From positions 4,384 to 68,383 of the forward strand of contig CAXAFE010000011.1 in assembly GCA_963968165.1 (NCBI GenBank): a stretch of 64,000 nt of DNA, in the 5' to 3' direction. The position numbers and the translations under genes are program-made. The notes below the pieces were generated by a model. It was not told the origin of the DNA, did not search any database, and saw only the letters and a program-made list of their open reading frames with translations. Shown piece after piece: positions 37,793 through 58,275 of this stretch. Origin of the DNA: an uncultured Candidatus Poseidoniales archaeon. Its GTDB lineage: Archaea > Thermoplasmatota > Poseidoniia > Poseidoniales > Thalassarchaeaceae. Positions within the stretch are counted from its first letter, which is position 1. Every line of letters starts with the position of its first letter.

Positions 37793-40700
37793 ATGTTTGG
37801 TAAAAGAGAATGCAAAGCATTTTTACTAGTATCATTAATGATAATTAGTACACAAATATCTCTAATCGGAAGTATTGATTTTAGTTCAGAGTTAAACGAA
37901 GAAGTTCAAAGATTTGAATCAAATAATGGAGATGTAACAATAATCTCTGTTGGTAATTCTCAATCCTGTGCAATTGGTACAGATAACAAAATGAAATGCT
38001 GGGGGGATGGAGATCAGGGTAAAACAGGTCATGAAAATACTGAAGATTATGGAGATGAAACTTTAGAAATGGGACGCTATCTTTATTTTACAGACGTTGG
38101 AACTAATTTAACGTTCTTAGATGTTGCACTAGGAGATACCTTTTCTTGTGCATTAGTAAATGATAGTTCAATTAGGTGCTGGGGAGAGAATGATAAACTT
38201 GGCAATAGTTTAGGTTTATCAGGTTCGGGCTCTAGAGGCGACGGTTATCTTGAGATGGGCTCAAATGTTAATACGGTGAATATTGGTACGTGGTTAGCTA
38301 ATTCCATAGAAGCCGGAGGAAGTCATGCCTGTGCAGTTGTAAATAACGGGACAGATGATTCTTTAGTTTGTTGGGGAGAAAATTCCGTTGGTCAATTAGG
38401 GCTAGGCAGCACAGATACCGTTGGAGATGATGTAGGAGATTTAGAAAGTGGCGAATTGCCTCATGTTGACTTACCAAACAGAGGAGGTATAACCAGCGTA
38501 ACACTTGGCAAGGATCATACTTGTATATTGTGGGCTGACGGAGAAATAGGTTGCTGGGGAGATAACTCTGCAGGACAATTAGGCATAGGAAATACAGACA
38601 CTATTGGAGATGAATCTAATGAAATGAGTACTAATTTGGTACTTGTAGATCTCCCCTCGGACCGTACTGCAACTGCAATTACTGCAGGAAATGATTTCAC
38701 ATGTGCAATTTTGGATGACGCAAGTATTGCATGTTGGGGAGAGGGGAGTAATGGAAGGTTAGGAACAGGAACCATCACTGATGAAGGTGATGAATCTGAT
38801 GAGATTGGAGATGATTTGAATATTGTTAATGTTGGTTCAGGATTAGGTGTTATATCGGCAGATGCAGGAGATTCACATATATGTGCCATATTAACAAATA
38901 ATCAGTTAAAATGTTGGGGAAAAAATGATTTTGGTCAACTTGGATATGGTAACGGACTCTCAATAGGTGATGATGACAATGAAATGGGAGACAGCCTAGA
39001 TGCGGTCTCACTCGGTACTGGAATTACTGCTAGTTCGGTAAAATCTGGAGATTCATTTACTTGTGCCTTAACAAATAATGACAGAGTGAAATGTTGGGGC
39101 TCTGGCGAAGATGGTAGGACGGGGCTTGGAAAAACTGGCGCTACTGGAGATGAGCCGAATGAGATGGGGAATTATTTAGAATATGTGGAGCTTTTTATGC
39201 CTTTAGAGGTATTCAACCTTGAATGTGATGTTGAAGCAGAGGGCGTAGATTCGGAATTATTAGCATTAGACAGTACATCTAACAATGTCGGTAATAAAGT
39301 ATCTACTACACTCAGTTCGAAATCATGTGCCAGTATGGCATATGTTGATGATGAAATAAATACAGCAAAATTTGGCATATATAATCTGAATAAATGGACA
39401 ATAGAGGAAGTTTACATATCGGGTACTTCAATATCCGATACAAGCATAACATTGGACTCAAATGATATTCCCCACTTATTATATATGGACACAGTTCAAC
39501 CCATATATTATACTAAATATGATGGAGAATGGACGTCTACTGCCCTTTCTTCCTCTTGGTTAGGTAGTTCTGTAGATATAGAAATAGACAGCTTGGGTAA
39601 TCTATACTTGTTCTCATTGTCTTCAACTGAATTAAATATAGTAGTTTGCTTGGAATCTTCAGATTGTTTAGATACTTCAAGTTGGACTGAAGTTGGCTCA
39701 ATATCAGTAGTATCAGGAGGATATGGATTAGATTCAGACATATCATATGATGATAAATTATGGATTGGGTATGTAGATGAAACAAGTGGAGATACTGATA
39801 TTGAACTGTCGACATGTTCTAGTTCATGTGAAATAATTGGAAATTGGCAACAAGTAATAATCAGTAATTTAGGAGATATTTCAACTGAAAACGCTTCTGT
39901 TGCATTAGACATAGGGGCAAACGGTTCGGTTCATGTTGCACATAATAATCTCGTAAATGGCCTACAATACTCAAATTGTTATTCAAGTTGTGAATCTGCT
40001 TCATCTTGGACTACTGAAGAAATTTTACAAACTTATAGTACAGGAGTTATTGATATTGGAACTGGACCAGATTTGTCTGTAGTCATAATTGTTGGAACTT
40101 CTAATGGAGAGTTTACACTGCATAAGAAAGATAATCAATGGAATTACAATCAGGTCAGAGGGACAGGAGATTCGGGCTGGCTGGGCATAGAAATAACCGA
40201 TCTTGGACAAATGTGGGGGTTTGCCTTTTATCCTGATAATCCAAATTCATTCTATCAACTAAGGCAACAAGGAATGACAACTCCTGGATTAGAATTAGAT
40301 ATTGATGGAGATGGATGGATGAGAGTAGATGAAGATATGTGCGGTACTAATTTCAGAGATTCTACGAGTATACCAATAGATACTGATGCTGATTATCTGT
40401 GTGAAATTATAGATGGAGCAGTAAGTGGAAATCCTTCAATCGGAGAATCAGATGTTTTGGCTTTAGGTGAAAAATTTGGATGTGCATTATTATCGGACGG
40501 AAGTGTAGCCTGTTGGGGAGATAATTCAGAAGGACAGCTTGGGAACAGTGTTGCAGGTGCAGATAGTGAATATGCAGTATTAGTGGATCTTCCAGATGGT
40601 TTTACGGCATCATCCATTGATGCTGGATCGGGGCATGCTTGTTCGGTAGGCGAGGATTTCTCACTAGTTTGTTGGGGGCGTAATACTGAGGGACAATTAG

Positions 40701-43700
40701 GAAGAGGTACTTTTTCTACATACGAATCCCCTAATTTCGTTAATATTCCTACAGGATTAGGAGTTAATAAATTTGCAATTGGAACTAATCATAATTGTAT
40801 GAAAACGTCTGATGGAGAAATATATTGTTGGGGTGAAAGCGATGATGAGAGACTTGGAAAAATATTAAATCCGGCTATTAATTATTCCATAGTTGATAAC
40901 TTTGAAAATAATGATTTAGATTGGACTCGAACGATAGGTAATTATTTCAATTGGGATAATTCTGGTTTTTTGTATAAAACCTATTATAATTCCTGGTCAA
41001 CAGACGTCATAGAATCAGATGCATTTAGTATTAATCCTGGTTCGGTTATTCAAATAAAAGTTGATGCACTACGACTTGGAGATAATGGAGGAACTTTGGA
41101 AGTTTTCATTGGAGAACAATTGATATCTACATTAACAGATTCTGATTGGCATGATAATATTTGGACAGGGTATAAAACAATTAATATCACCGTACCGGAT
41201 TCAATACTAGATAATGTAGGATTAAAATTTAGAGTTTATTGTTACAGGTGTACGGTTAAAATTGATGATTTAAATACTGAAAATACTGCTTATGGTGGAG
41301 TAAGTGATCTAAATATTCCTACTAAGCTGGATTTTGATAATTCGGATTCTATTTCAGAGATAGCACTTGGTGATCGTCATTCTTGTACTGCTTCTGTTAC
41401 CAATTCGGGTGATGATGAGATATATTGTTGGGGATATAATGGAGGAATAAACTCTAATGTTTTAGGAAATTATAATTACTATGGAATAAATAGTTACTTG
41501 CCACAATTAGTAGATTTATCAGGTCCGGATAGTTTGGTCTCCTCCAATTGGTCGACTAATTCAATTGTGAGTATCAATGCTGGTAGCGATACTACATGTT
41601 CAATTCTAGACAGTCTGGAATCTGTGTGTTGGGGGAAATCCGCTTTGACAGAATATATTAATCCAAGTATCGACACTGTGGCGTCGACAGGCGACATAGG
41701 AAGGCATCCTGCATTAATGCTGGACAGCAATAATTACTGGAATATTGCATTTTATGATTCCTCGAATAGTGATTTGAGATTAGCATATTATGATGGAGTA
41801 AGTTGGAATGTAGAATCGGTTTATGCCGGTAGTAATGATGTTGGAGAAGGAGTAACAATTACATTAGATGGAGATGGGAATAAGCATTTGGTTGCGTATG
41901 ACCATACGGATGATGAAATAGTACATATGACTAAAATGATAAACTCGACAGAATTGATAGCCAATATTGATGGTAATTCATATAATCCTGCTACTGTAGT
42001 AGATTCAGAAGGTAATATCCATATTGCCTATCTTGAAGGTACTACAAAAACTTTACAGTATATCTATTATAATGGAACATCTTGGTCCTCACCGATCCTT
42101 ATTGATGATTATTTAACCTGGAGCGGTTATGGAACTAATGATTTACAAATTGATTCATCTGGTAATTTACATCTAAGTTACTATAATTGGAATACAGCTC
42201 CTTCTAATGACCCGCATGAATTAACTTACGCAACATATAATGGTTCTGTTTGGTCCACTTACGCACTTCAAGAAATGATATGCTCTGGAGCATGTGGAAC
42301 GAATGGATTCAGTTCGTCCATAGAAATAGATGTAAATGATCGCCCCCATATCTCATATTATGATCAAAAGAATGATACGTTAAGATATACTCATTATGAT
42401 GGTACTAGTTGGACTGATGAAACGGTAACTACGGATGATGATAACAATAATGGTATTTATAATTCAATAAGCTTAGATAATAATGATTATCCCAGAATAG
42501 CGTACTATAATGTGACACATGCAGATTTAGATTTAGCCGTATGGGACGGTTCAACATGGTCTTTTCAAAAAGTAGATACAATGAATTCAGTTGGAACATA
42601 TCCCTCAATTTCCATTGGAACTGATGATTTAACAAGAATTGCCTACACTTATGCATCCCAGAGTGATATAAAATATGCAAGTAGCACTGGAACTGATTGG
42701 AATTTTCACACATTTGAAGGATCTTACAGTTCCATAGTTTCCTTAGGGCTTGACGATTTAAACAATCCTAGAATTTCTGCTATCAATATTGATGGAACTG
42801 ACAATGTAGTATTATTTTATAATAATAGTAATGAGTGGATAGAATATAATGTTGAAGATAACTCAGGAACTAATAGCAATCATCCTAGTATGTTTGTAAA
42901 TTCGGATGGAACTGCATATATTGCATACGTAAATGCCGGCGATGGATTCGTTAGATATTCTACGATCTACACTGGCACGATTTGGAATAAAAATAATATT
43001 GCAACTACTGGAGATGTTTCAACTTCTTATCCAGGATTGGGGATGCACTTTGACAGAACCGATTTCTTGAATTTAAAATATATTGATTCTACAGATTCTG
43101 CTCTCAAAAGTACAATTGTTCGTAATAAAGGAGATTTATTATCGTCATTAGTTGATGGTGAGAATACAAATTCCGGAAAACATTCATCAATAGTGGTTGA
43201 TAGTGCAGGAAACACACACGTCTCCTATTACAATATAAGTAGTACATCATTGATGTATGCAAAATATAATAATTCATGGGCAATTGAAGAGGTAGATAAC
43301 ACGGGCACCTCTGGAGTTTATACTTCAATTGTAATTGATGACCAAGATATGCCGCATATATCCTATCAAAGTGAAGCGAAATTAAAATATGCAAAATACA
43401 ATGGTTCTGGTTGGGAATTAACCACCATAGATGATGAATCGACATATTTGGCATATGAAACATCTATCGAACTTGATACTAATTATAATCCTCATATCGC
43501 CTATAGAGTGCAAAATTATACTGGTTCCACATATGAATATCATGTAAAATATGCACATTACAATGGCACTAATTGGACTACAGAAGACGTAAAAACTAGT
43601 GATAGGTCAAATTGGAATTCATATTCAAATACCGGACGGGATGTTTCTATAGCTCTTAATAGTACTAATACAGTTTTTATAACATATTATGATGATTATT

Positions 43701-46700
43701 GGGATGATTTGTATATTGCCAATAAGACTGGTAATAATTGGACTACATCAAAAATAGCAGATAATGCTGGAGGAAATGAAAGAAGTGCCTCAATTATTGT
43801 AGATTCAACAGATAGCATACATTTAGCATATTATGATAGATCTGGGTATGATTTACATTATGCATTTTGTCAATCTTCATGTGAGCTCTTTACCTCTTGG
43901 ATTCATACTCTAGATATAGATTCGTCGAGTTATAATATTGGCACATACGTCAGTATTGCATTAGATTCTGATAATAATCCGCACATAGGCTATTATGATT
44001 CTGCTTATGCAGATTTAGAATATGCTTATTGTACTGATTTATGTTCAAGTGCTTCATCATGGGTGAAAGAGACCATTAGTTCTGATAACAATGTTGGTTA
44101 TCATGTATCGATATCAGTTGATAGTAACGATAATATATATTTTTCATATTATAATGCTAGCAATACAGGGTTGGAGATTATTAATTTATTTTCTGGAATT
44201 GATGATACAACCATTATATCTCCTATTGGAAGCCATCATTATCAGTTGGGATTCGTAAATTTAGATGGTACTGAGCATTTATCATATTATAATGGCACAG
44301 ATACCTCTGGAAAATTACAATATTCAACAATTAATTTAGAAACAGGATTATGGGGGGCCACAACTGTAGATGAAAGTTCTACTAAAACAGGATTATATTC
44401 CGATATAGATTTAGATAGCTATGGAAATCCGCATATATCATATTTTGACTCCACGAATAACAAGATAAAATATGCATATTATGATAGTTCCTCGTGGGTA
44501 ATTTCTGATGTAGCTACAGTAGGTGAAAATAGTGGATATACATCCATTGTTATCAATTCAATTAATAGACCAAATATAGCATATCATGATTCCACAACCG
44601 GAGATTTGATGATGGCAAAGTGGGATGGTAATTCCTGGACGATATTGGCTCAAGATGAAGGATCCGCCGGACTAGGAACAGATATTTCAGTAGACAACAC
44701 TGATATGATATTTATTTCATACTACGATGAGACGACAGATGATTTAGAGTTTGTAACTACAGGTTATGAATCGCCGATCCTTACTGGAAACTCGTATTAT
44801 CATATCTCTGGTACTTCACTCGATAATGGTTCAGGGCCTATTAAGTCTATTGATATTGGAGAAACGCATGCATGCGCCATAATGCAGATTACGATCAAAT
44901 GTTGGGGGAGTTCACAATCAGGCCAATTGGGTAATGGAGTGGTAGCCGATACTTCATTATCCCCAGTTAGTGTTAATTCCGTAGGTGGATTTACTCCGCT
45001 AGAAGTTTCAGTATCTATTAATTCAGATTCCAATGGAGGCTCTTCTTGTGCGCTTTATTCTGAGGATTTAACAAATCAAAGGGTTGTTATGTGTTGGGGA
45101 TACGGAGAAAATGGCCAAATCGGAGATGGGGCTGATATTTCATTAAACTCGCCAAGTAGCACTAGTAAAGTAAGCATAGATTTCGAAATTGCATTAGGAA
45201 TTGCATATGGAAGTGATTATGTGTCCACGGGTCAAAATGATCCAATGAAGATATCATTATCGTCAACGAGTAATTTTGGTTGTGCTATGTCGTACAAAGG
45301 GCATGTCAAATGTTGGGGATATAATGGCTATGGGCAACTTGGAATAGAAAATACTACTAATAGTGGAGATAGTGATAACGAGATGGGTTCAAATCTTAAA
45401 TTTGTTTCTTTAGGAGTAAATAGAACGGCAAAGGATATCTCATTGGGTGGATCTCATGCTTGTGCAATTTTAGATAATAATCAAGTAAAATGTTGGGGAT
45501 ATAATGGCTATGGGCAACTTGGAATTGAAAATAATACTCAAATAGGAGATAATTATGGAGAACTATGGGGCGATAATCATCCTTCGATAAATCTAGGAAC
45601 TGGAAGGACGGCAGTTGCAATATCAACAGGATTTTCACATACATGTGTCATTTTAGACACCGGCGATATCAAATGTTGGGGATATAATGGCTATGGGCAA
45701 CTTGGAATTGGAAGTACTGCTACAATAGGGGATAACCCTAATGAGATGGGAGATAATTTAGCAAAAGTAGACTTAGGATATGGTAGAACAGCATTAGCAA
45801 TTGTAAGTGGAACAAATTCAAACTGCGCTATATTAGATAGTGGATTGATAAAATGTTGGGGGAGAAATAATGTAGGACAACTTGGAATTGGAAGTACTAC
45901 TCAAATTGGAGATAATACTAATGAGATGGGTAATAATCTAGAAATATCCAGATTAGGGACAGATACGATTGCACTTTCATTATCAGGAGGAGGTTCAAAT
46001 TATTGTGCTTTGACCAATAATAGAGATATCAAATGTTGGGGACATAATGGCTATGGGCAACTTGGAATTGAAAATACTACTCAAATGGGAGATAATGTTA
46101 ACGAGATGGGAGACAATTTAATAAAAGTTGATTTAGGAACTGGAAGATCTGCTATCAGAATTTCGACAGGTAGTACTCACACATGCGTAATATTGGATAA
46201 TGAAGATTTTAAATGTTGGGGATATAATGGCTATGGGCAACTTGGAATTGGAAGTAATACTCAAATTGGAGATAATACTAATGAGATGGGAGATAATTTA
46301 ATTTCTCCTGAATTGCCGTTAAATTCAATAAAGGTATTAGAATCTGGTAATCATAATACATGTGCCATCTTATTCGACAACACAATAAGGTGTTGGGGAT
46401 ATAATGGCTATGGGCAACTTGGAATTGGAAGTACTGCTACAATAGGAGATAATCCTAATGAGATGGGTAATGAGATGGCCATTACTAATCTTCACCTTAT
46501 ACCTAAAGATTCAGATGGAGATGGATGGATTGACTTGTGGGATAATGATGATGATAATGATGGATATTTAGATATTTATGATCATCTACCACATGATAGT
46601 CGAGATTGGAGAGATTATGATGGAGATGGATTAGGAACTAATGTTGATACAGACGATGATGATAGTGATGTAAAAACAGTAGATCAGGATACAATATTAA

Positions 46701-49700
46701 CTTGGTCAGATGAAGAGGAGATAGCATGCGGCTATTTGCCTTGGAGTAGTTTATCGACTCCTGCAGATTATGATGGAGATGGAATATGCGATGCATTGGA
46801 TATGGACTTAGATGGCAATGGATGGAATAATACATATCAGAAACAATGCTATGGAGAAGAGATTGATTTATGGAAAAATACAGAAATTTGGGGAAATACA
46901 GCAAGTGCCAATGTACCCTATTCTACTTATGATGGTGCTGGTTACGGAGGTTATGACTTCCTTATTTCCGATTATGGAATAAAGTCATATGCCACGTATA
47001 GTAATTTTTATTTAAGCCAAGGTTTAATCAGGCATGATGAGTCTGTATCTATTCAATACACCAACTACGTTTATTATGCATACGATTATTTTGAAGTTTT
47101 AGAACAAAATGGAATTATTTATGTGAATAATGAAGAACAAATAATTAGATTTCAAGATATAAATAATACAGGTACAGGAACTACTGTATCATCCTCGTTG
47201 GGTCAAGGCCCAATGGGAAGTGATATGGCCATTAGTAAAGATGGAGATATGGTTGTAAGTTATAATCAAGCAGAAAATAAGATAGTTGGGAATTATCTAA
47301 ATGGGACAGTTTTTAGTTTTAATTTACCCAGTAACCTTGGTGCAGGAGGACAAATAGCTTTCGGCCCTAATGGCAGACTCCACCTTATTGAGGTTGATTT
47401 GAATGCAAGAGATTCAGATTTACCCATTGGATTCTATCATTATTTCGCTGATTTAAATAATTCACTATCTGGTTATTCATCTATGGATTGGAGTACAGGG
47501 CAATTAGTACTTGAAAGAAATCAGAGTACTACTTCTTATTCCGCAAATACTCAATCGGATGCAGATAGTTATCATGCTGATTTACATGTAACCGATGCAG
47601 GTAATATTTACGCTGCTATGTATAATAATACTGATTTATGGAGTGCTTCCTATGCAGGGTCTACATGGACTAATCAAAAAATTGCTGAAGATACAGGAAA
47701 TAATGAAGGAATAATAATATCTTCTGATTCCTCAGGGACCCCTCATATTGGTTGGATTAATCACACATCTGATAAGTTAATTATCTCAATATTTGATAGT
47801 TCTGAATGGATAGATGTCGAAATTTGGGAAAGTGATGGATGGGCCCCTGGGTTAAGACGTTCTAAATTATCATTGAGATTTGATAGTAATGACGATTTAT
47901 TTTTGATGTCGTATAATGCTAATTCAACAAATAGTGCCCTGATTCATCATAAAGTTCCATTGATTAATCCCGCATATTCATACAACCCCGTAGATCATGA
48001 TACTGATGGAATATGCGATAGTTTACAATATTCCATTATAGATTATGGAAGTACGACTTTTCAATTAATAGAAGGGAACGAGGTTACCATTAATCCAACT
48101 TTTAGAGGTCTAGAAATTGTTGAAGTGTATTCAACAAATCTTCCCTCAGGATTATCTTTGAATTCCACAACAGGCATCATAACGGGTTCTCCAACTGATA
48201 CCGACTTAATTGGAACATCTGTAACAGTCTATTCCAATAGTAGTAATTCTTCTTACACACACACCATAACGATATATGTAATCTCAAAAACTCCGACGAT
48301 AGCAGGAGTATCAACCCCTATACAAGTTAATGTTAATTATGAAAGAACCCAACACGAATATGATTCAGAAGGTAATCTATATTATTATGGAAGATATTCC
48401 TCGACTACTATTCCTGGTGAATTTACACCAGATGGGATATCCATATCAGGACTAACTAATGATGATGCTTATGTTGCTAAGAGGTTTAGTAATGGGACTT
48501 GGGCTTGGTTTTTCCCAATAAATGGTACCTCCACATTATATACAGGTAATTTAGCTGTAGATGATTTAGGAAATTCATATATCGTTGGAAATAGAGATTC
48601 TGGAGTGATAGATTTACCGGGCACTGTTTGGGATTTACCATCTGGAAAAGCGCCATTTATTATCTCAATAGATAATACTGGATCAATAAGGTGGGCAAAG
48701 GATATGGAAAGTACGGGCTCCATAAATTGGAAATTTGGAGTAAGGTATCAATTTGTAAGAGATTATGGGCATAGCGAGTTACATATTGATAATGCAACAG
48801 GAGAATTGACTTTTTCAGGAAGCATCAGTTCCACAGGTGTGACCCAGGAAGAAAGGACAGCAACATTTGGAAATTTGACATTGGAAATTGGAACTTCGTA
48901 TACTAGTTACTACAGGCCATTTGTGTTTAAAATGGATTCTTTAGGGGAATTTATTTGGGTACAAAGCATTACACCCAGTTATGCCCAACATTCTCCTCTT
49001 CAAGGGATGGCAGTACAGGAAAACGGGACAGTTAGTTTACTCTGGAAGTCATATTCCAGCTCTGTTGCGGGATCCATCACTGTTGGTGAAAATGGAGTTT
49101 GGCAGTTTATTTTAGCCAATATTAATTCAACAGGACATTGGACAAACAGTAAATCGATTTTAGAAGAAACCGACCATAACCGTATTGCCTCAACAGAGGT
49201 AGGTGCAAAAATGGAAAGTGTCAAGAACGGCGATATTGTAATTGCAATGTGGTCTTTGGATGATACTAGTAAAATAAGAATATCTGATAGCATTTATTGG
49301 TTCAATGAAACATGTGTAGATAGTTTAGCAATACTTAGATTAGATGGTACAGACTGGCAAGTAGAAAATAGTTTAGAAATATGTTTGGCTGGAAACGGAG
49401 GCAGCGGCGCCAGTAAAACTGATAAAATGGAAGTAGATTCACAGGATAGGATTTGGCTTTTTATAGGATCAACTTCTTTAAGTAACCATAATAGAATCAT
49501 TAGATTAGATTCAATACTTAATACCGATTTTGAAGAATATTTCACTTATGCTAATAATAGAGGTAATTCTTTCTATATCTATTGGCAAGATGTGACTTTT
49601 GATAATGATGATAATGTCTTTTTAACAATATATAATAATGCTTATTCTTCTTTGTGGTGGGATGAGTCCAGTATTCCTTATACTTACAATATTTATTATA

Positions 49701-52700
49701 GAAATTTATTCCTTATGGATAAAGTTCGACATACAATTGATGGGAAAAATCCAGTATTTGGTGAGCAGATTAACTATGGAATCAATGGACTCAGTGCTAT
49801 GGGAGGAAGTGATTATGATCAGATTGATAGTTATGCAATTTCACCCGATCTACCTGATGGTTTAGAATTTAATATTGGAACTGGAGTGATATCGGGCACC
49901 GCCATAACAAATTCTTCATTAGCTAATTATACAATATGGGTTAATGATACATTACTAGGAAATCAGGTCTTAAATATCGCTTTTGAAGTGCTCAATGGGA
50001 AACCCAATGTTACTTATGAGCAAACAGAATTCATATTCGAACGGGGGGCGATAATAGCGCCTATTGTCCCGACAGAGATCAATGGAACTATAGTTTCGTG
50101 GAATGTAGTACCCGCACTCCCGTTTGGATTGAGTATGGGAGAAAGTAATGGTACTATTTGGGGCATACCAACAGTTAACTTAACTTCTACAATATTTAAC
50201 TTGCAAGTAAGTAGTGATGGGGCTACTAGAAATATATATTTTAATTTCACAATTAATGAGCCCTTGGCTACAATAACATATGGAAATGGCTCGTATATTG
50301 TTGGAAGAGATTCACTAGTAAGCATATTCCCCGCATTAGGAGGAGGGGAAATTGCGAGTTTTGGAATTACACCAACATCATTACCAATGGGGCTTGAATT
50401 TAATCCTGCGACAGGAAGTATTACTGGAACTCCACTTTTGGTTGTTGGTGCAGTTAATTATACAGTTTTTGCTAACAATTCAGGAGGTTCTGTAAATACT
50501 AGTCTCATACTAACAGTTACAGGTAGTGGGATTAGTCTAGTATTTCCTACCTCATCAATAGAATTGGTCAACGGAAGTGAAATGCAACCCATTGCAGGTC
50601 AAACATCGGGTTCTGCACCAAATTATTGGGAAATATCGCCAGAATTACAGGATGGACTAGAATTTGGAATTTTCAATGGAACGATTTGGGGCACTCCATC
50701 TGAGGTAATGAATTCAACCACTTACATCATCTGGGCAAATACTACAGGAGGAGAGACTGCTAATGCAGAATTAACAATCTCCGTACTCATAGATACGGAT
50801 GGAGATGGCACTCCCGACACCATAGATATTGATGATGATAACGATGGTTGGAGCGATATTGATGAAAATAATTGTGGAAATAATCCATTAGATAATACTA
50901 ATTATCCAAGTGATTCAGATGCTGATGGGATTTGTGATTCTTTAGATACCAATAATGATGCTGATATAATAATATTATATCCAACAAATGAATTATATAT
51001 TACAGTTAACCAAAGTTTCACACCACTTGTGCCATTTACTTCTGGAGGAGATATTACAGGTTGGGAAGTCAGCCCTAACCTGCCATTTAATATAGAATTA
51101 AATAGTTCAACAGGCGTTGTCTCAGGGATGGCTACGACCATATTTAATGCCACTACATATACCATATGGGCAAATAATTCAGCGTATTCTGGATTGTTTA
51201 ACCTTTCAATAATTTCATCACTTTTGGATACTGATGGAGATGGTAGCCCAGATGAAACAGATTTGGATGATGACGGAGATGGTTGGACTGATACAGATGA
51301 AATCACATGCCTTACTAATCCACTGGACTTAGAAGATCTCCCGGTTGATAGTGATGGAGATGGAATTTGTGACGGGGCTGATCCAGTTAATGATTCAGAA
51401 ATATTCTTCAGTTATCCATATACTGTATTAGTAATTACCGTTAATAGCTCGGTATCACTAAATCCGTATGTTACTGGAGGAGACGTCATAACGTGGGAAA
51501 TATACCCTCAATTACCTGAAAATTTGATTTTTAATTCTGATAATGGACTAATTAATGGAGAAGCCATATCTGAGTTCCTCCCTACAAATTTTACAATATG
51601 GGCTAATAATTCTCAATATTCATCTATGTTCATAATAGAACTTGCTTCATTATTGTTAGATACTGATGAAGATGGAGTTCCAGATGAAACAGATATAGAT
51701 GATGATGGAGATGGTTGGACTGATAGTCAAGAAATAAATTGTTCGAGCGACCCATTGATAGCGTCAAGTATTCCACCAGATAGTGATGAGGATAATGTAT
51801 GTGATAATTTAGATGACGTAAATGATGCACAAATATATTTGACATATTCTAGCCTTTCTCAGAATTTATTTGTAAATGAACCAATGGACTACTTAGTAGC
51901 AACTGTTTATGGAGGAGATGTAAGAGAGTGGGAAATTAGCCCTGAATTACCTTTAGGACTCAATTTGGACAATGGAGTTGCATATAGATCTCTTTCCATG
52001 GTAGGAACAGGATTAATATCGGGTTCGCCGATGTATGAATTTCCATTAACTATTTTTACAGTTTGGGCTAATAACTCACAACATAGCGATTCTATAGCGA
52101 TTGCTTTAAAATCTTCAATTCCTGATTTGGATGATTCATATTTTGATTTACTTTACCTTGAAGATAATATTAATTTAACTATAGAATTTGATGAGTTATA
52201 CCTTGAGCCAGAAATATTTGGCGGTAATGTAACAAATTGGAGCATTATTCCTCAAATTCCAGAAGGATTGATATTTAATTTCGATAATGGAGTAATTTCT
52301 GGACAACCATTAATTTCATTTAATGAAACGATATTTTCAATATCAGCTAGTAATTCTATTCATATTGATATTTTTAATCTAACACTATCTGCTCAATATC
52401 TTGATTCAGATTTAGATGGAATTCCTGATATAATAGATGAAGATGATGATGGAGATGGTTGGAATGATACTATGGAAATAGATTGTGAAACTGAACCACT
52501 AGAATTTTATCTCTCCCCTGGTGACACAGATGGAGATGGAATGTGTAATCTATTAGACACATTAGATGATTCTCCAATCCTTTTCTTTTACCCTAATGAT
52601 AAGATAATTGGCATTGTTGGTGAAGAAATTCAATCGATTGTTCCAAGAATAGCACCGTCAGGAGGAGATATTCTTGAATATAGTGTATCTACACCATTAC

Positions 52701-54445
52701 CAGATGGATTAATCATTGATATCTTTACTGGAGTAATTTCCGGGACACCATTAGTACAATTTGATCATTTAATTTTGGAATTCTCTCATACAATTACAGC
52801 AAGTAATGGACAGTATAATTTTTCTTATTCTGTAGATTTTGATATCATTCCGAAAATTATTGAAGACTTGGATACTGATGGTGATGGCTGGACCAACCAA
52901 GATGAGCTTAGCTGTAATACCTCTCAAATCGATCCAGAGTCTTATCCTCAAGATATTGATCTTGATGGAAAATGTGAACTGATGGATGATGATGATGATG
53001 GTGACGGAAGGGCAGATGAAATAGATGCGTTTGCAAACAATTCTTATGCGTGGGAAGACACTGATGGTGACGGAATTCCGGATGATGTTACATGCAAATA
53101 TTCAACAAACTCTTCTTATTGTATTTCTTTAGATTTGATAGCTGATACAGATGATGATGGTGACGGTTGGAATGATACTGCAGAAATAAGCTGTGGTACA
53201 AATCCTAAGAATGGTACTAATATGCCACTAGATGATGATGAGAATGGAGTATGTGATCGTTTAGAAATACAAGAAGTAGCCAATAACAAAATATTTTGGA
53301 TAGTTTGTTTTCCATTAGTATTGATATTGTTATTATTGTTCTGGCTATTAAATCCATTTGGAGTTAATGACGATGAAATAAGGGGCCCCGAACCGCCATA
53401 TACTAAATTCACCCCAAAGATACAAGAGGGCACTGGCGAATATGATAATCCATTCATACTTAAATCGATAAAAGGCGTTAGGGCCGGAGGAAGCACCCAA
53501 TCAAGAGAACTGATAAAGATTACAAATATTACGCCTAGATTAGAAATAGATTTTATCAATTTATCTACTGATGACGATAATGGGAGATTTAGCATGAAGA
53601 ACATTAAAGCTAATTCAAGAGGCGAAATAGAATTTAGGCTCGATTTCAATGATTACAATATTAGTCAGGAAGGTTCTAAATATAGTGCATTTATGAGAAT
53701 TGGAAAGGCGTCTGTATACTTGAAATGGGATGTAGAAGTTAAAAACACAAAAGATCTTACAGAGGAAGGAAGTCTACCAGTAAAAAATACTGCAAATACC
53801 GCTGTAAAGGTAGTTGAAGCTGAAGCTACTAGGCTGGCTGAAGAAGCTGAAGCTACTAGGCTGGCTGAAGAAGCTGAAGCAGATCAACGAATAAAAAGGA
53901 CTCTAGAAGAAATGGCTATATCAGAAGTTGATAAGATAAAGGAAAGAAAGATAAGGCTGGCTGAAGAAAAGAAGGTGGAACTATTGAGAAGAGTTGCAGA
54001 AAAAGCAAAAACCATTGATTTTGACATTATTGGTTATGCGGCAACTGCTGATGTCACAACTGAGATAACTCCAGGATTGGAAAGTATCACTCTAGGTGAT
54101 GCATCTTCTTTCCCAGAAAGTGGGAATGCATACATCAAAGATGAAAAAGTAAACATATCCATCAAATGGACTGGGAAAGATGGAGATACGCTGATAGGAA
54201 TTTCTGGCATAAATATGCACACACCAATCGGTTCAATGATAGTTCAAAAAGATAATTTACAAGACATAAAAGGTATTGGCCCATTTATAGAAGAAAAATT
54301 GAATGCTTTAAGCATATATACATTTAACCAGATATCAAATATGACTCATGAAATAGAAGAACAGGTTAATAATGCCATTGAATTCTTCCCGGGAAGAATA
54401 AGGAGAGATGAGTGGGTAAAACAGGCTTACGATTTTTTAAATTGA
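37793..54445 (+). CDS. Giant (5,550 aa) mosaic cell-surface protein: RCC1 propellers + unnamed ~48-aa repeats + TSP3 Ca-binding repeats + Ig-like (He_PIG-type) domains + TM + cytoplasmic coiled-coil/H3TH tail
   Basis: A single uninterrupted ORF in the track. The N-terminus is signal-like (AFLLVSLMIISTQISLIGS). By my count there are 21 CWG..N..GQLG blade signatures (7+5+9), ~10 LP.GL.F...TG.I.G.P motifs and many DxDxDGxxDxxD motifs. One TM helix (IFWIVCFPLVLILLLLFWLL) lies at 53291-53352, followed by a ~365-aa tail. Confidence 0.9.
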   Translation: MFGKRECKAFLLVSLMIISTQISLIGSIDFSSELNEEVQRFESNNGDVTIISVGNSQSCAIGTDNKMKCWGDGDQGKTGHENTEDYGDETLEMGRYLYFTDVGTNLTFLDVALGDTFSCALVNDSSIRCWGENDKLGNSLGLSGSGSRGDGYLEMGSNVNTVNIGTWLANSIEAGGSHACAVVNNGTDDSLVCWGENSVGQLGLGSTDTVGDDVGDLESGELPHVDLPNRGGITSVTLGKDHTCILWADGEIGCWGDNSAGQLGIGNTDTIGDESNEMSTNLVLVDLPSDRTATAITAGNDFTCAILDDASIACWGEGSNGRLGTGTITDEGDESDEIGDDLNIVNVGSGLGVISADAGDSHICAILTNNQLKCWGKNDFGQLGYGNGLSIGDDDNEMGDSLDAVSLGTGITASSVKSGDSFTCALTNNDRVKCWGSGEDGRTGLGKTGATGDEPNEMGNYLEYVELFMPLEVFNLECDVEAEGVDSELLALDSTSNNVGNKVSTTLSSKSCASMAYVDDEINTAKFGIYNLNKWTIEEVYISGTSISDTSITLDSNDIPHLLYMDTVQPIYYTKYDGEWTSTALSSSWLGSSVDIEIDSLGNLYLFSLSSTELNIVVCLESSDCLDTSSWTEVGSISVVSGGYGLDSDISYDDKLWIGYVDETSGDTDIELSTCSSSCEIIGNWQQVIISNLGDISTENASVALDIGANGSVHVAHNNLVNGLQYSNCYSSCESASSWTTEEILQTYSTGVIDIGTGPDLSVVIIVGTSNGEFTLHKKDNQWNYNQVRGTGDSGWLGIEITDLGQMWGFAFYPDNPNSFYQLRQQGMTTPGLELDIDGDGWMRVDEDMCGTNFRDSTSIPIDTDADYLCEIIDGAVSGNPSIGESDVLALGEKFGCALLSDGSVACWGDNSEGQLGNSVAGADSEYAVLVDLPDGFTASSIDAGSGHACSVGEDFSLVCWGRNTEGQLGRGTFSTYESPNFVNIPTGLGVNKFAIGTNHNCMKTSDGEIYCWGESDDERLGKILNPAINYSIVDNFENNDLDWTRTIGNYFNWDNSGFLYKTYYNSWSTDVIESDAFSINPGSVIQIKVDALRLGDNGGTLEVFIGEQLISTLTDSDWHDNIWTGYKTINITVPDSILDNVGLKFRVYCYRCTVKIDDLNTENTAYGGVSDLNIPTKLDFDNSDSISEIALGDRHSCTASVTNSGDDEIYCWGYNGGINSNVLGNYNYYGINSYLPQLVDLSGPDSLVSSNWSTNSIVSINAGSDTTCSILDSLESVCWGKSALTEYINPSIDTVASTGDIGRHPALMLDSNNYWNIAFYDSSNSDLRLAYYDGVSWNVESVYAGSNDVGEGVTITLDGDGNKHLVAYDHTDDEIVHMTKMINSTELIANIDGNSYNPATVVDSEGNIHIAYLEGTTKTLQYIYYNGTSWSSPILIDDYLTWSGYGTNDLQIDSSGNLHLSYYNWNTAPSNDPHELTYATYNGSVWSTYALQEMICSGACGTNGFSSSIEIDVNDRPHISYYDQKNDTLRYTHYDGTSWTDETVTTDDDNNNGIYNSISLDNNDYPRIAYYNVTHADLDLAVWDGSTWSFQKVDTMNSVGTYPSISIGTDDLTRIAYTYASQSDIKYASSTGTDWNFHTFEGSYSSIVSLGLDDLNNPRISAINIDGTDNVVLFYNNSNEWIEYNVEDNSGTNSNHPSMFVNSDGTAYIAYVNAGDGFVRYSTIYTGTIWNKNNIATTGDVSTSYPGLGMHFDRTDFLNLKYIDSTDSALKSTIVRNKGDLLSSLVDGENTNSGKHSSIVVDSAGNTHVSYYNISSTSLMYAKYNNSWAIEEVDNTGTSGVYTSIVIDDQDMPHISYQSEAKLKYAKYNGSGWELTTIDDESTYLAYETSIELDTNYNPHIAYRVQNYTGSTYEYHVKYAHYNGTNWTTEDVKTSDRSNWNSYSNTGRDVSIALNSTNTVFITYYDDYWDDLYIANKTGNNWTTSKIADNAGGNERSASIIVDSTDSIHLAYYDRSGYDLHYAFCQSSCELFTSWIHTLDIDSSSYNIGTYVSIALDSDNNPHIGYYDSAYADLEYAYCTDLCSSASSWVKETISSDNNVGYHVSISVDSNDNIYFSYYNASNTGLEIINLFSGIDDTTIISPIGSHHYQLGFVNLDGTEHLSYYNGTDTSGKLQYSTINLETGLWGATTVDESSTKTGLYSDIDLDSYGNPHISYFDSTNNKIKYAYYDSSSWVISDVATVGENSGYTSIVINSINRPNIAYHDSTTGDLMMAKWDGNSWTILAQDEGSAGLGTDISVDNTDMIFISYYDETTDDLEFVTTGYESPILTGNSYYHISGTSLDNGSGPIKSIDIGETHACAIMQITIKCWGSSQSGQLGNGVVADTSLSPVSVNSVGGFTPLEVSVSINSDSNGGSSCALYSEDLTNQRVVMCWGYGENGQIGDGADISLNSPSSTSKVSIDFEIALGIAYGSDYVSTGQNDPMKISLSSTSNFGCAMSYKGHVKCWGYNGYGQLGIENTTNSGDSDNEMGSNLKFVSLGVNRTAKDISLGGSHACAILDNNQVKCWGYNGYGQLGIENNTQIGDNYGELWGDNHPSINLGTGRTAVAISTGFSHTCVILDTGDIKCWGYNGYGQLGIGSTATIGDNPNEMGDNLAKVDLGYGRTALAIVSGTNSNCAILDSGLIKCWGRNNVGQLGIGSTTQIGDNTNEMGNNLEISRLGTDTIALSLSGGGSNYCALTNNRDIKCWGHNGYGQLGIENTTQMGDNVNEMGDNLIKVDLGTGRSAIRISTGSTHTCVILDNEDFKCWGYNGYGQLGIGSNTQIGDNTNEMGDNLISPELPLNSIKVLESGNHNTCAILFDNTIRCWGYNGYGQLGIGSTATIGDNPNEMGNEMAITNLHLIPKDSDGDGWIDLWDNDDDNDGYLDIYDHLPHDSRDWRDYDGDGLGTNVDTDDDDSDVKTVDQDTILTWSDEEEIACGYLPWSSLSTPADYDGDGICDALDMDLDGNGWNNTYQKQCYGEEIDLWKNTEIWGNTASANVPYSTYDGAGYGGYDFLISDYGIKSYATYSNFYLSQGLIRHDESVSIQYTNYVYYAYDYFEVLEQNGIIYVNNEEQIIRFQDINNTGTGTTVSSSLGQGPMGSDMAISKDGDMVVSYNQAENKIVGNYLNGTVFSFNLPSNLGAGGQIAFGPNGRLHLIEVDLNARDSDLPIGFYHYFADLNNSLSGYSSMDWSTGQLVLERNQSTTSYSANTQSDADSYHADLHVTDAGNIYAAMYNNTDLWSASYAGSTWTNQKIAEDTGNNEGIIISSDSSGTPHIGWINHTSDKLIISIFDSSEWIDVEIWESDGWAPGLRRSKLSLRFDSNDDLFLMSYNANSTNSALIHHKVPLINPAYSYNPVDHDTDGICDSLQYSIIDYGSTTFQLIEGNEVTINPTFRGLEIVEVYSTNLPSGLSLNSTTGIITGSPTDTDLIGTSVTVYSNSSNSSYTHTITIYVISKTPTIAGVSTPIQVNVNYERTQHEYDSEGNLYYYGRYSSTTIPGEFTPDGISISGLTNDDAYVAKRFSNGTWAWFFPINGTSTLYTGNLAVDDLGNSYIVGNRDSGVIDLPGTVWDLPSGKAPFIISIDNTGSIRWAKDMESTGSINWKFGVRYQFVRDYGHSELHIDNATGELTFSGSISSTGVTQEERTATFGNLTLEIGTSYTSYYRPFVFKMDSLGEFIWVQSITPSYAQHSPLQGMAVQENGTVSLLWKSYSSSVAGSITVGENGVWQFILANINSTGHWTNSKSILEETDHNRIASTEVGAKMESVKNGDIVIAMWSLDDTSKIRISDSIYWFNETCVDSLAILRLDGTDWQVENSLEICLAGNGGSGASKTDKMEVDSQDRIWLFIGSTSLSNHNRIIRLDSILNTDFEEYFTYANNRGNSFYIYWQDVTFDNDDNVFLTIYNNAYSSLWWDESSIPYTYNIYYRNLFLMDKVRHTIDGKNPVFGEQINYGINGLSAMGGSDYDQIDSYAISPDLPDGLEFNIGTGVISGTAITNSSLANYTIWVNDTLLGNQVLNIAFEVLNGKPNVTYEQTEFIFERGAIIAPIVPTEINGTIVSWNVVPALPFGLSMGESNGTIWGIPTVNLTSTIFNLQVSSDGATRNIYFNFTINEPLATITYGNGSYIVGRDSLVSIFPALGGGEIASFGITPTSLPMGLEFNPATGSITGTPLLVVGAVNYTVFANNSGGSVNTSLILTVTGSGISLVFPTSSIELVNGSEMQPIAGQTSGSAPNYWEISPELQDGLEFGIFNGTIWGTPSEVMNSTTYIIWANTTGGETANAELTISVLIDTDGDGTPDTIDIDDDNDGWSDIDENNCGNNPLDNTNYPSDSDADGICDSLDTNNDADIIILYPTNELYITVNQSFTPLVPFTSGGDITGWEVSPNLPFNIELNSSTGVVSGMATTIFNATTYTIWANNSAYSGLFNLSIISSLLDTDGDGSPDETDLDDDGDGWTDTDEITCLTNPLDLEDLPVDSDGDGICDGADPVNDSEIFFSYPYTVLVITVNSSVSLNPYVTGGDVITWEIYPQLPENLIFNSDNGLINGEAISEFLPTNFTIWANNSQYSSMFIIELASLLLDTDEDGVPDETDIDDDGDGWTDSQEINCSSDPLIASSIPPDSDEDNVCDNLDDVNDAQIYLTYSSLSQNLFVNEPMDYLVATVYGGDVREWEISPELPLGLNLDNGVAYRSLSMVGTGLISGSPMYEFPLTIFTVWANNSQHSDSIAIALKSSIPDLDDSYFDLLYLEDNINLTIEFDELYLEPEIFGGNVTNWSIIPQIPEGLIFNFDNGVISGQPLISFNETIFSISASNSIHIDIFNLTLSAQYLDSDLDGIPDIIDEDDDGDGWNDTMEIDCETEPLEFYLSPGDTDGDGMCNLLDTLDDSPILFFYPNDKIIGIVGEEIQSIVPRIAPSGGDILEYSVSTPLPDGLIIDIFTGVISGTPLVQFDHLILEFSHTITASNGQYNFSYSVDFDIIPKIIEDLDTDGDGWTNQDELSCNTSQIDPESYPQDIDLDGKCELMDDDDDGDGRADEIDAFANNSYAWEDTDGDGIPDDVTCKYSTNSSYCISLDLIADTDDDGDGWNDTAEISCGTNPKNGTNMPLDDDENGVCDRLEIQEVANNKIFWIVCFPLVLILLLLFWLLNPFGVNDDEIRGPEPPYTKFTPKIQEGTGEYDNPFILKSIKGVRAGGSTQSRELIKITNITPRLEIDFINLSTDDDNGRFSMKNIKANSRGEIEFRLDFNDYNISQEGSKYSAFMRIGKASVYLKWDVEVKNTKDLTEEGSLPVKNTANTAVKVVEAEATRLAEEAEATRLAEEAEADQRIKRTLEEMAISEVDKIKERKIRLAEEKKVELLRRVAEKAKTIDFDIIGYAATADVTTEITPGLESITLGDASSFPESGNAYIKDEKVNISIKWTGKDGDTLIGISGINMHTPIGSMIVQKDNLQDIKGIGPFIEEKLNALSIYTFNQISNMTHEIEEQVNNAIEFFPGRIRRDEWVKQAYDFLN
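37930..39190 (+). repeat. RCC1-like block 1 (7 blade signatures)
   Basis: The blades read KCWGDGDQG, RCWGENDKLG, VCWGENSVGQLG, GCWGDNSAGQLG, ACWGEGSNGRLG, KCWGKNDFGQLG and KCWGSGEDGRTG. Each is followed by ..GD...EMG and a ..(H/F)(A/T)CA strand. Confidence 0.8.
39330..40270 (+). repeat. First block (~6 units) of the unnamed ~48-aa repeat, several with a C-x3-C...W insert
   Basis: Units include PIYYTKYDGEWTSTAL, IELSTCSSSCEIIGNWQQV, LQYSNCYSSCESASSWTTE and FTLHKKDNQWNYNQV. Confidence 0.6.
40441..41650 (+). repeat. RCC1-like block 2 (5 blade signatures) interrupted by a ~140-aa non-RCC1 insert at ~40861-41290
   Basis: ACWGDNSEGQLG, VCWGRNTEGQLG and YCWGESDDERLG precede the insert. The insert begins ILNPAINYSIVDNFENNDLDWTR and ends RVYCYRCTVKIDDLN. 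YCWGYNGG and VCWGKS follow it. Confidence 0.7.
41690..44780 (+). repeat. Main array, ~21 units, of the unnamed ~48-aa repeat
   Basis: The consensus read by eye is G.Y.SI.(L/V)D(S/N)..N.PHI(S/A)YYD....DL.YA.Y(D/N)G(S/T).W..E.V. Example: TYVSIALDSDNNPHIGYYDSAYADLEYAYC..., LYSDIDLDSYGNPHISYFDSTNNKIKYAYYDSSSWVISDV. Confidence 0.75.
44840..46480 (+). repeat. RCC1-like block 3 (9 blade signatures); the last 7 form a ~180-nt DNA-level tandem array
   Basis: The core TGTTGGGGATATAATGGCTATGGGCAACTTGGAAT starts at 45311, 45491, 45674, 46214 and 46391 (identical), at 46034 (1 mismatch) and at 45854 (diverged). Spacings are 180/183/180/180/180/177 nt. Confidence 0.9.
49840..53260 (+). repeat. Ig-like (LPxGLxF..TGxIxGTP, He_PIG-type) domains, from ~50780 alternating with TSP3/Cys modules
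   Basis: Example Ig-like run: ISPDLPDGLEFNIGTGVISGTA...YTIWVN. TSP3/Cys modules are LLDTDGDGSPDETDLDDDGDGWTDTDEITCLTNPLDLEDLPVDSDGDGICDGAD and three or four further copies. Confidence 0.75.
53816..53881 (+). repeat. Perfect in-frame 27-nt tandem duplication (2.4 copies) in the tail of the giant ORF
   Basis: GAAGCTGAAGCTACTAGGCTGGCTGAA occurs at 53816-53842 and 53843-53869, followed by 12 nt of a third copy. It encodes (E)AEATRLAE x2. Confidence 0.95.
54251..54442 (+). other. C-terminal H3TH-like (COG3743/DUF4332-like) domain of the giant protein
   Basis: NLQDIKGIGPFIEEKLNALSIYTFNQISNMTHEIEEQVNNAIEFFPGRIRRDEWVKQAYDFLN aligns by eye, residue for residue, with the C-terminus of the 33615-36254 protein. 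Confidence 0.65.
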
Positions 54446-54516
54446 TAAAATAAAATAAAATATTGTAGATAGGCATTAAATAGAAATTGATTGTGCATAT
54501 GAGCGGAGGAATTAAT

Positions 54517-58168: not shown

Positions 58169-58275
58169 GTAATTATACTAAGCGTGATGCCTTACATTTA
58201 TCAAACGTATGTATAAGGATTCTAACTGCTCTTTTAACCAACGTATTGAAGCGCGTAAGCCTTGTGTTGGGTAAT

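Follow-up and report, generated by a model that had tools for sequence, protein, structure and literature searches.

The 64,000-nt stretch of DNA analysed here (the window: contig CAXAFE010000011.1 of assembly GCA_963968165.1, positions 4,384 to 68,383) comes from an uncultured archaeon of the order Poseidoniales and contains a gene for a protein of 5,550 amino acids (aa), hereafter the giant. The protein is a mosaic of beta-propellers and immunoglobulin-like (Ig) domains, followed by a single transmembrane helix and a tail that ends in a helix-hairpin-helix (HhH) domain; judged from its sequence, it is a type-I membrane glycoprotein with the tail in the cytoplasm. The tail marks a widespread and apparently undescribed family of giant membrane proteins, in which the outer part (ectodomain) evolves fast and the tip of the tail is strongly constrained. 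With a probability of about 0.6, the giant is interpreted as a calcium-stiffened, multi-lectin adhesin or capture fibre that is docked inside the cell through its HhH tail.

Poseidoniales, the uncultured Marine Group II, are the most abundant archaea of the surface ocean, and little is known of how they encounter particles, algae, viruses and grazers; the locus offers a concrete conserved gene in a fixed genomic position. The giant embodies no new principle, but it opens a clear and testable way to study the cell surface of a major, uncultured lineage of the ocean. Because the tail defines the family, giant surface proteins become easy to find in any metagenome-assembled genome (MAG) of Poseidoniales, even where assemblies break. 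The conservation of the tail raises the testable question of what archaeal surface proteins attach to inside a wall-less cell, and the fast-evolving ectodomains could underlie differences in niche between strains and could serve as virus receptors.

Integrity of the gene and identity of the host

The preliminary description of the window, made from the letters alone, had reported one uninterrupted 16.65-kb open reading frame (ORF) of 5,550 codons, and this ORF proved to be free of internal stops and intact and colinear in other assemblies. The comparison set, retrieved via genes neighbouring the giant gene, comprised two scaffolds of sister samples (SAMEA5958375 and SAMEA5958376), two SPAdes contigs of a third assembly, and Logan contigs of two other runs. 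All five assemblies are colinear with the window at 99.87-99.99% identity with no gap openings, and jointly cover positions 26946-64000. The gene call in L001 is identical in length (5550 aa), and that in NODE_801 extends over 5359 aa to the contig end. Within the ORF, the assemblies differ from one another by 29 single-nucleotide variants (10 synonymous and 19 non-synonymous) and by no stops or indels. A chimeric assembly is unlikely because all five match the ORF without indels; the giant ORF is a real gene.

The Logan contigs stop at 45335, a fragile place within near-identical blades of an RCC1 propeller. A 27-bp in-frame tandem repeat (53816-53880), which encodes EAEATRLAE and sits in the coiled coil of the tail, is the point at which three assemblies either break (two contig ends) or have a gap of 100 N (scaffold L002, 7740-7980). 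At least five copies of the repeat surround the gap in L002 versus 2.4 in the window, where the copies are probably collapsed and under-counted. The names of the SPAdes contigs that flank the break record similar coverage, 17.8 and 19.9. That the near-identical RCC1 blades and the 27-bp repeat fragment several assemblies, and that one ortholog (in locus L091, below) is spread over three reading frames, might point to an assembly artefact or to a pseudogene open by accident, but this is extremely improbable given the indel-free agreement of five other samples or runs, the similar coverage on both sides of the break, and the existence of colinear orthologs, including a 3,775-aa open stretch in MAG LRMED-428 (a name that suggests a long-read assembly); moreover, 16.6 kb without a stop at 35% GC is no chance event. 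Misassembly was rejected on the basis of the agreement and the orthologs, and a horizontal origin because the GC fraction of the ORF (0.33-0.39) matches the rest of the window. A TATA-like box, TTTATATT, lies 25 nt ahead of the ATG and therefore suggests a leaderless or short-leader archaeal promoter.

Among the relatives of the giant's tail, the nearest are Candidatus Thalassarchaeaceae MAGs (L011 and L026) and FRAM18_bin107 (L012), to which the proteins flanking the giant (MscS, topoisomerase IB and GTP cyclohydrolase II) are 81-87% identical; on these grounds, the host is assigned by sequence to an MGIIb-like archaeon of the Poseidoniales. None of the 80 loci fetched for this study is close enough to represent the same species. 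The archaeal origin that had been proposed for the giant is upheld by an archaeal RNase P RNA in the window (16716-17008, + strand, 234 bits) and by relatives that belong to Poseidoniales and Marine Group III. Other typical archaeal genes in the window encode the HTH_10 regulator, a DUF2240 protein, TruD, and a pseudouridine synthase with TruB, PUA and DKCLD domains.

The tail and its family

The architecture, which had not been recognised at first, is no one-off: the giant belongs to a large family, and orthologs occupy the corresponding place in other genomes. A homolog search with the transmembrane helix and tail returned 517 proteins from MAGs of Poseidoniales and Thermoplasmatota, many of them auto-named "flap endonuclease-1-like 5' DNA nuclease" in IMG. 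When one genome per species was scanned, at least 551 genomic stretches proved to encode the tail, and 80 loci were kept from these. Nearly all of the 80 carry labels of Poseidoniales (both families of Marine Group II), of Marine Group III or of marine archaea left unclassified; several MAGs supply two tail loci each, and the first published Marine Group II genome (CM001443, locus L087) encodes a family member of 2,137 aa. In 57 of the 80 loci, a tail of 329-792 aa, with its parts in the same order, comes after the transmembrane helix. The ORFs of these loci either are complete, with a total length of 1,113-3,276 aa, or continue for more than 3,300 aa upstream of the transmembrane helix to the edge of the fetched DNA, and their ectodomains measure from 1,100 to over 3,300 aa. 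Three loci are filed otherwise, in MAGs named Flavobacteriaceae (L060), Rhodobiaceae (L064) and Yoonia (L077); their contigs are probably Poseidoniales binning contaminants. No paper describing the family or its tail was found, which, with incomplete coverage of the literature, is absence of evidence only.

Family members are built in a constant order. A module of calcium-type loops and cysteines precedes a leucine-rich transmembrane helix; next come the motif GPEPE(N/H)T, a beta domain with GKASVYFxW at its end, and a helix of highly variable length rich in Ala, Glu and Lys; the last parts are one to three units that consist of IDFxxIG, a small beta domain and an HhH domain. The family is defined here by the transmembrane helix, a GPEP(E/P)xT motif, a beta-sandwich that closes with GKASVY, the variable coiled coil, and 1-3 copies of the IDF..IG and HhH unit, and the window protein carries all of these elements in alignment with its homologs. 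Its HhH domain is 67-85% identical (median 74%) to those of all 80 loci, and 33 columns of this domain are invariant in the tail alignment; the other parts of the tail have median identities of 31-43%, among them the small beta domain (43%) and the juxtamembrane domain (34%) in related loci. In comparisons with the nearest relatives, the tail as a whole is 50-52% identical and the part of the ectodomain at aa 3500-3990 is 46-47% identical, while the flanking housekeeping proteins reach 81-87%. The orthologous relationship extends far into the ectodomain of some members: those of L013, L019, L030, L035, L048 and L052 are colinear with the giant over more than 2,000 aa at approximately 30% identity, and L091, a 1.6-Mb long-read contig polished with pilon, has at the same genomic position an ortholog of 43-44% identity that is colinear over aa 4-4124. 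The order of genes at L091 is TruD, MMPL, DUF2240, HEAT, DEAD helicase, an 824-aa protein and the giant ortholog. On the other side, the order of giant and then MscS is kept in eight related Poseidoniales loci.

The strongest hydrophobic segment of the giant (aa 5167-5185, Kyte-Doolittle 2.95) falls exactly where a single transmembrane helix had been proposed, at 53291, and the tail that follows it, estimated beforehand at approximately 365 aa, consists of 363 (aa 5188-5550). The signal-like N-terminus was also confirmed, hydropathy showing a K/R-rich start and a hydrophobic stretch at aa 10-28. Most family members have RDR, RER or KER right after the transmembrane helix; because of these basic residues and the signal-like N-terminus, the large part of the protein is placed outside and the tail in the cytoplasm. 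The ectodomain of approximately 5,140 aa has a net charge of -552, with 9.7% Asp and 3.6% Lys plus Arg, contains 80 of the 82 cysteines, mostly as regular pairs, and has 87 N-X-S/T sequons; cysteine is absent from the tail, where Glu, Lys and Arg make up 24% of the residues. As an isolated segment, the tail matches no Pfam model above the cut-off. Foldseek matches of the beta-sandwich predicted in its juxtamembrane part are Ig-like or PapD-like and weak (E above 1e-3), and the region equivalent to its coiled coil is highly variable in length among homologs.

The HhH domain is the best-conserved part of the whole family of proteins. The tail family profile matches Urf1 chains in the PDB (9wqv_a, E 2e-14; 8yy9_O, E 2e-13), and the C-terminal region of NCBIfam model PRK12373 matches the HhH domain of the giant (E 4e-13), as do those of PRK12311 and PRK12278. 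In Pfam, the giant by itself has a sub-threshold match to Cdd1 (PF11731, 13.2 bits versus a cut-off of 25.5), and its close tail homologs carry precomputed HHH_5 (PF14520) and PF11731 annotations. The GIGP hairpin and the FxGRxxRDxW motif are present and invariant in the alignment, and the domain is classified from its sequence as a helix-hairpin-helix of the COG3743/Urf1 type. Pfam and NCBIfam scans of the tail and of the whole protein detected no nuclease domain (PIN-like/XPG); the automatic name "flap endonuclease" is therefore misleading, and both a nuclease function of the tail and a flap endonuclease-1-like identity were rejected, the HhH part being all that is present.

Elsewhere, domains of this type occur as extensions of membrane-anchored Urf1/NuoE, of the ribosomal proteins S2 and L21 and of the phasin PhaH. 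The last 65 residues of the giant are homologous to the C-terminus of Urf1/NuoE (PRK12373), and in Urf1 the domain likewise follows transmembrane helices on the cytoplasmic side; in contrast to the giant, these bacterial proteins are small and without an ectodomain, and the HhH domain is all that the two have in common. The cryo-EM structures of Urf1 resolve the N-terminal membrane helices only, not the HhH domain. In PhaC2 of Halomonas, a COG3743 domain stands where a histone-H1-like DNA-binding domain otherwise sits (PMC8686332). This replacement, together with the general behaviour of HhH motifs, gives rise to the idea that the tail may dock to DNA.

A candidate intracellular partner is encoded two genes upstream of the giant: a soluble protein of 879 aa, rich in Lys, Glu and Ala and predicted to form a coiled coil, that ends in an HhH domain 58% identical to that of the giant (tblastn, E 3e-17). 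Its ortholog at L091 (824 aa, 7504-9978) lies directly upstream of the giant ortholog. No Pfam domain was found in the 879-aa protein, which contains a short internal tandem repeat (two copies of TAAEQKSKTER). The suggestion that the giant is coupled to something inside the cell thus gains support, at the level of sequence, from a conserved tail module, from the HhH domain being its best-conserved part, and from a soluble paralog with the same domain.

The ectodomain

The ectodomain contains about nine propellers: three of the RCC1 type, five seven-bladed ones that resemble lectins and sialidases, and one similar to CylK and SBBP. The three RCC1 blocks of seven, five and nine blades that had been counted by eye score well over the Pfam cut-offs, with WD40_RLD (PF25390) at 266 and 230 bits (cut-off 150), RCC1_2 (PF13540) at 221 and 176 bits (cut-off 22), and RCC1 (PF00415) at 115 and 96 bits, so that by Pfam score they are assigned to the RCC1-like domains; a self-built hidden Markov model (HMM) of the blade gives identical counts, 7 + (3+2) + 9 = 21. 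In their DNA, the last seven blades of block C share 78-97% identity, which points to their recent internal amplification. Since 21 blades equal three times seven, the five blades of block B and the divergent first two blades of block C may close into one propeller, into which a triple propeller of approximately 1,030 aa would be inserted. A homolog search with the N-terminal 550 aa returned mostly generic bacterial RCC1 proteins and was informative for P0304 and P0305 only. Block B is interrupted by a beta-rich insert of 136 aa, described beforehand as a probable jelly-roll. It has no Pfam match, and a profile search of the PDB gave just a weak match to SusF (E 0.02), so that its jelly-roll fold is putative.

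Three blocks of an unnamed repeat of approximately 48 aa, also part of the preliminary description, were located with a self-built HMM, which detects five copies in aa 500-750, 21 in aa 1303-2331 and at least three in aa 3260-3381. The third, degenerate block is 44-61% identical to its counterparts in orthologs L026, L016 and L021 (61% to L026). The copies in the window have no Pfam match at E<=1. A homolog search found 202 relatives of the repeat in bacteria and archaea, with the consensus SLALDxxGxPHISYYDxxxxxLKYAxxxGxxWxxxTVD, and many of these carry precomputed PF15892 (BNR_4) or PF23911 annotations. When the repeat alignment was used as input, AlphaFold2 modelled aa 1290-1700 with a pLDDT of 83.4 and a pTM of 0.80, and residues 1-345 of the model form seven four-stranded blades. 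Foldseek ranked the seven-bladed PLL/PHL lectins of Photorhabdus first among PDB structures (E 1e-14, target-normalised TM-score 0.71), followed by GH145, sialidases and PL25 ulvan lyase. The propeller formed by the repeat is accordingly modelled as seven-bladed, with a fold like those of lectins and sialidases, and because AlphaFold2 gives seven blades and 21 copies were counted, the second block is most simply read as three such propellers. The PLL/PHL lectins share with it the number of blades and are its best structural match, but their identity to the repeat propeller is just 10-15%, for which reason no membership in their family can be claimed. Designed TIM barrels, the sole PDB profile matches of the repeat alignment, were disregarded as an artefact of repeat periodicity.

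The part nearest the membrane was described beforehand as approximately ten Ig-like domains interleaved with cysteine-containing thrombospondin type 3 (TSP3) modules, with an SBBP-like propeller at approximately 48300-49800. The Ig domains stand, by sequence, as putative Ig domains of the He_PIG family (PF05345, 114.6 bits versus a cut-off of 24), with ten copies detected by a domain HMM. The modules that alternate with the last six of them are approximately 50 aa long, each with three DxDxDG loops and one cysteine pair, and a pattern search finds 27 such loops with regularly paired cysteines. TSP3_bac (PF18884) just reaches its cut-off of 25 bits, with 25.3 bits at aa 5020-5165, the other modules score 15-19 bits, and the eukaryotic TSP_3 (PF02412), a form that has cysteine pairs as well, has no match in a Pfam scan of the giant. 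Pfam SBBP (PF06739) falls below its cut-off (16.3 versus 20.5 bits), with the same weak match in three of six orthologs, but a profile of aa 3500-3990 with five orthologs matches a CylK chain (PDB 7fh7, E 6e-10). The region is therefore best regarded as a relative of the SBBP/CylK propeller class and not as SBBP in the sense of Pfam.

Table 1. The giant gene, its predicted parts and adjacent features, with coordinates in the window
Feature	Position (nt)	Strand	Residues (aa)	Basis and remarks
Soluble K/E/A-rich coiled-coil protein, candidate intracellular partner	33615..36254	+	879 in total	tblastn, NCBIfam; ends in HhH type of the giant
HTH_10 regulator, divergent	36946..37614	-		Pfam; shares intergenic region with the giant
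TATA-like box TTTATATT	37761..37768	+		read from sequence
Whole giant ORF	37793..54445	+	1-5550	ATG start, 5550 aa plus stop codon, no internal stop
Signal-like N-terminus	37793..37876	+	1-28	K4, R5, K8, then hydrophobic core aa 10-28, Kyte-Doolittle 2.04
RCC1 propeller A	37961..39223	+	57-477	7 blades; Pfam WD40_RLD, RCC1_2, RCC1 and blade HMM
First ~48-aa repeat block	39290..40273	+	500-827	~7 blades: 5 by self-built HMM, 2 degenerate by eye
RCC1 block B	40475..41653	+	895-1026 and 1196-1287	blades 1-3, insert, blades 4-5; Pfam and blade HMM
Insert within RCC1 block B	40880-41287	+	1030-1165	beta-rich
Second ~48-aa repeat block	41699..44785	+	1303-2331	21 blades; self-built HMM, AlphaFold2, Foldseek
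RCC1 block C	44867..46492	+	2359-2900	9 blades; Pfam and blade HMM
Ca-type DxDxDG loop cluster with cysteines	46508..46831	+	2906-3013	sequence pattern
Third, degenerate ~48-aa repeat block	46970..47977	+	3060-3395	three blades by HMM
He_PIG-type Ig domain 1	48044..48280	+	3418-3496	Pfam and domain HMM
CylK/SBBP-like beta-propeller region	48290..49762	+	3500-3990	profile against PDB
He_PIG-type Ig domains 2-5	49790..50785	+	4000-4331	Pfam and domain HMM
Stalk	50792..53257	+	4334-5155	Ig domains 6-10 alternating with Ca-loop modules, the last three modules terminal
Single transmembrane helix	53291..53353	+	5167-5187	hydropathy
Juxtamembrane GPEPP motif and predicted beta-sandwich	53384..53740	+	5198-5202; 5210-5316	alignment; low-confidence AlphaFold2
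Long helix/coiled coil	53807..54010	+	5339-5406	AlphaFold2; holds the 27-bp tandem repeat
Small beta domain preceding HhH	54044..54247	+	5418-5485	AlphaFold2, local pLDDT 74-86; conserved in tail alignment
C-terminal HhH domain, COG3743/Urf1 type	54248..54442	+	5486-5550	PDB profile, NCBIfam, alignment
MscS-type mechanosensitive channel gene	54487..55860	+		Pfam; 42 bp downstream of the giant

Proposed function and alternatives

As an adhesin or capture fibre, the giant would offer many binding faces on its nine outer propellers, and these would most likely recognise glycans or other polymers, be it on particles, on the surfaces of algae or on other cells. The membrane-proximal stalk of ten Ig domains and disulfide-clamped modules with three calcium loops each would be rigid in the Ca2+ of seawater and would hold the propellers off the cell. 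One helix would span the membrane, the coiled coil of the tail might space or oligomerise the chains, and the HhH domain would dock the giant to a conserved intracellular partner, either nucleoid DNA or a lattice that includes the soluble 879-aa paralog. Such docking would supply a mechanical anchor beyond what one helix in an archaeal membrane can give. The earlier proposal of a calcium-dependent adhesin or particle- or prey-binding fibre fits the acidity, the calcium loops, the sequons, the paired cysteines and the lectin-like propeller; its prey-binding part has no specific evidence.

Several observations weigh against this interpretation. The likeness of the repeat propeller to lectins stands at approximately 12% identity, with glycosidases and lyases equally close, and TSP3_bac is borderline in Pfam. 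The window protein's own subgroup has no basic residue directly after the transmembrane helix, so its topology has to be derived from the signal peptide, from composition and from homology. For the tail, AlphaFold2 gives a poor model (pLDDT 57), which makes the fold assignments there weak, and the net charge of the HhH domain (-4) is atypical of a DNA-binding surface. Finally, the L091 ortholog (10001-22748) is distributed over three reading frames and changes frame near 12.6 kb and again near 18.16 kb, which may be due to indel errors of long reads or to a decaying gene or pseudogene.

An unlikely alternative is that the family forms a structural coat, a glycoprotein surface layer (a glycocalyx or S-layer substitute) that the tail ties to the cell body. 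The family spans the whole order, with two loci in several MAGs; its members are membrane-anchored, sequon-rich and extremely acidic; and fast evolution of the ectodomain is expected of an exposed face under pressure from phages and grazers. However, no lattice-forming domain was recognised, the ectodomains of paralogs differ widely, and no archaeal S-layer protein appeared among the PDB matches of four parts (the repeat propeller, the CylK-like region, the insert and the tail) or in Foldseek; besides, 5,550 aa would be costly for a bulk coat, and the nine propellers resemble binding or catalytic modules. If they were catalytic, the giant could be a surface enzyme array whose seven-bladed propellers would cleave algal polysaccharides on the outside of the cell as active glycosidases or lyases. 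This is improbable: although Foldseek matches with E values from 1e-13 to 1e-9 include the rhamnosidase BT3686 (GH145), sialidases and a PL25 ulvan lyase, and although homologs of the repeat carry precomputed PF15892 (BNR_4) annotations and Marine Group II archaea are thought to use high-molecular-weight organic matter (PMC4511931), the top structural matches are non-catalytic lectins, the sequence identity to any enzyme is 10-18%, and no glycoside hydrolase or lyase model of Pfam or NCBIfam matches the protein.

The closest analogues in overall plan are the SPEARE proteins of Nanohaloarchaeota, which are 3,300-8,553 aa long and mostly extracytoplasmic (PMC6642349). Like the giant, they have a giant, variable, adhesion-type ectodomain and cross the membrane with a single helix close to the C-terminus; the C-terminal region is cytoplasmic, is better conserved than any other part, and bears a DNA-related domain (PMC6642349). 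The shared plan, and the presence of predatory bacteria (Bdellovibrio, Bacteriovorax, Sorangium) among the top RCC1 matches, would suit a contact device whose ectodomain attaches to another cell and whose nucleic-acid-binding tail handles DNA or RNA there, for uptake, tethering or signalling. That the giant works in this way is highly improbable, since Pfam and NCBIfam find no nuclease, helicase or ATPase domain beside the HhH domain in its tail, one transmembrane helix per chain cannot form a pore, the RCC1 matches are generic, and Marine Group II archaea are considered to be heterotrophs that live freely or on particles. The two groups also differ in their parts: SPEARE tails have type III restriction enzyme domains, whereas that of the giant combines a coiled coil with an HhH domain and has no enzyme domain, and SPEARE ectodomains have laminin-G, protease and toxin-like parts, whereas that of the giant is made up of propellers (RCC1, lectin-like and CylK-like), He_PIG domains and calcium-loop modules. 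The host of SPEARE proteins is an obligate symbiont and those of the giant family are planktonic heterotrophs. No sequence relationship of the giant to SPEARE proteins was found, nor any ResIII, helicase or laminin-G match in Pfam or NCBIfam; membership was rejected for want of the defining type III restriction and laminin-G domains.

The interpretation as a docked adhesin or capture fibre can be compared with other giant proteins of prokaryotes. Bacterial giant adhesins of the LapA, SiiE and MpIBP type are secreted by type I systems and have C-terminal RTX repeats and an N-terminal module for retention at the outer membrane. They resemble the giant in the long, acidic, calcium-binding stalk of Ig repeats that holds binding modules off the cell, and in a probable attachment role; they differ in that the giant has an N-terminal signal, a C-terminal transmembrane helix and a large cytoplasmic tail. 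Pfam scans of the giant found no HemolysinCabind (RTX) match, and on this ground, together with the signal-like N-terminus and C-terminal transmembrane helix, membership in the RTX/type I secreted adhesins was rejected. Very large proteins with extracellular RCC1 propellers are also known from Oscillospiraceae, in which RCC1 repeats occupy the full length and there is no transmembrane anchor (bioRxiv 10.1101/2023.11.21.568195); the giant, by contrast, is a mosaic with a transmembrane helix and a tail. Marine Group II surveys describe widespread thrombospondin-type and calcium-dependent adhesion proteins and link them to particle attachment (PMC6461757, PMC4511931). The passages of these two papers reached by term searches, which give adhesion genes at domain level, do not mention RCC1 or giant proteins; the tail was not among the terms. 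A full-text search for RCC1 with Poseidoniales returned no paper.

A wider, speculative and rather unlikely extension of the docked fibre is a linkage across the envelope, in which giant, fast-evolving adhesive ectodomains, by way of one helix, the nearly invariant HhH domain and the soluble paralog, would tie the surface to the nucleoid or to a cortical scaffold, and the adjacent MscS channel might sense the tension that this causes in the membrane. If true, it would be a prokaryotic counterpart of integrin-type or LINC-type coupling.

Neighbouring genes

The intergenic region between the divergent HTH_10 regulator and the giant contains two copies of the 13-mer CCATTCATGATAG, at 37651-37663 and 37740-37752, which occurs nowhere else in the window (0.24 occurrences expected). 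The pair may constitute an operator, and a regulatory link between HTH_10 and the giant is possible.

Other genes of the window encode putative surface or secreted proteins. A 1133-aa protein (2183-5584, - strand) has a signal-like start, five repeated modules of approximately 110 aa, a long run of calcium-loop and cysteine modules of the type found in the stalk of the giant, a terminal transmembrane helix, and a short acidic tail without an HhH domain; its sequence identifies it as a putative second surface protein of the same stalk design. Another gene encodes a very large, probably secreted subtilase of 2015 aa (6515-12562, - strand; Peptidase_S8) with a PPC domain. Downstream of the giant, a 796-aa CARDB-domain protein (58246-60636, + strand) has a signal-like N-terminus and a C-terminal transmembrane helix. 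It is 64% identical to its nearest orthologs versus 81-87% for adjacent housekeeping proteins, and is therefore likely to be another fast-evolving surface protein. The window also contains three tRNA genes: Gln-TTG (12591-12664), Lys-CTT (15777-15851) and His-GTG (58093-58167).

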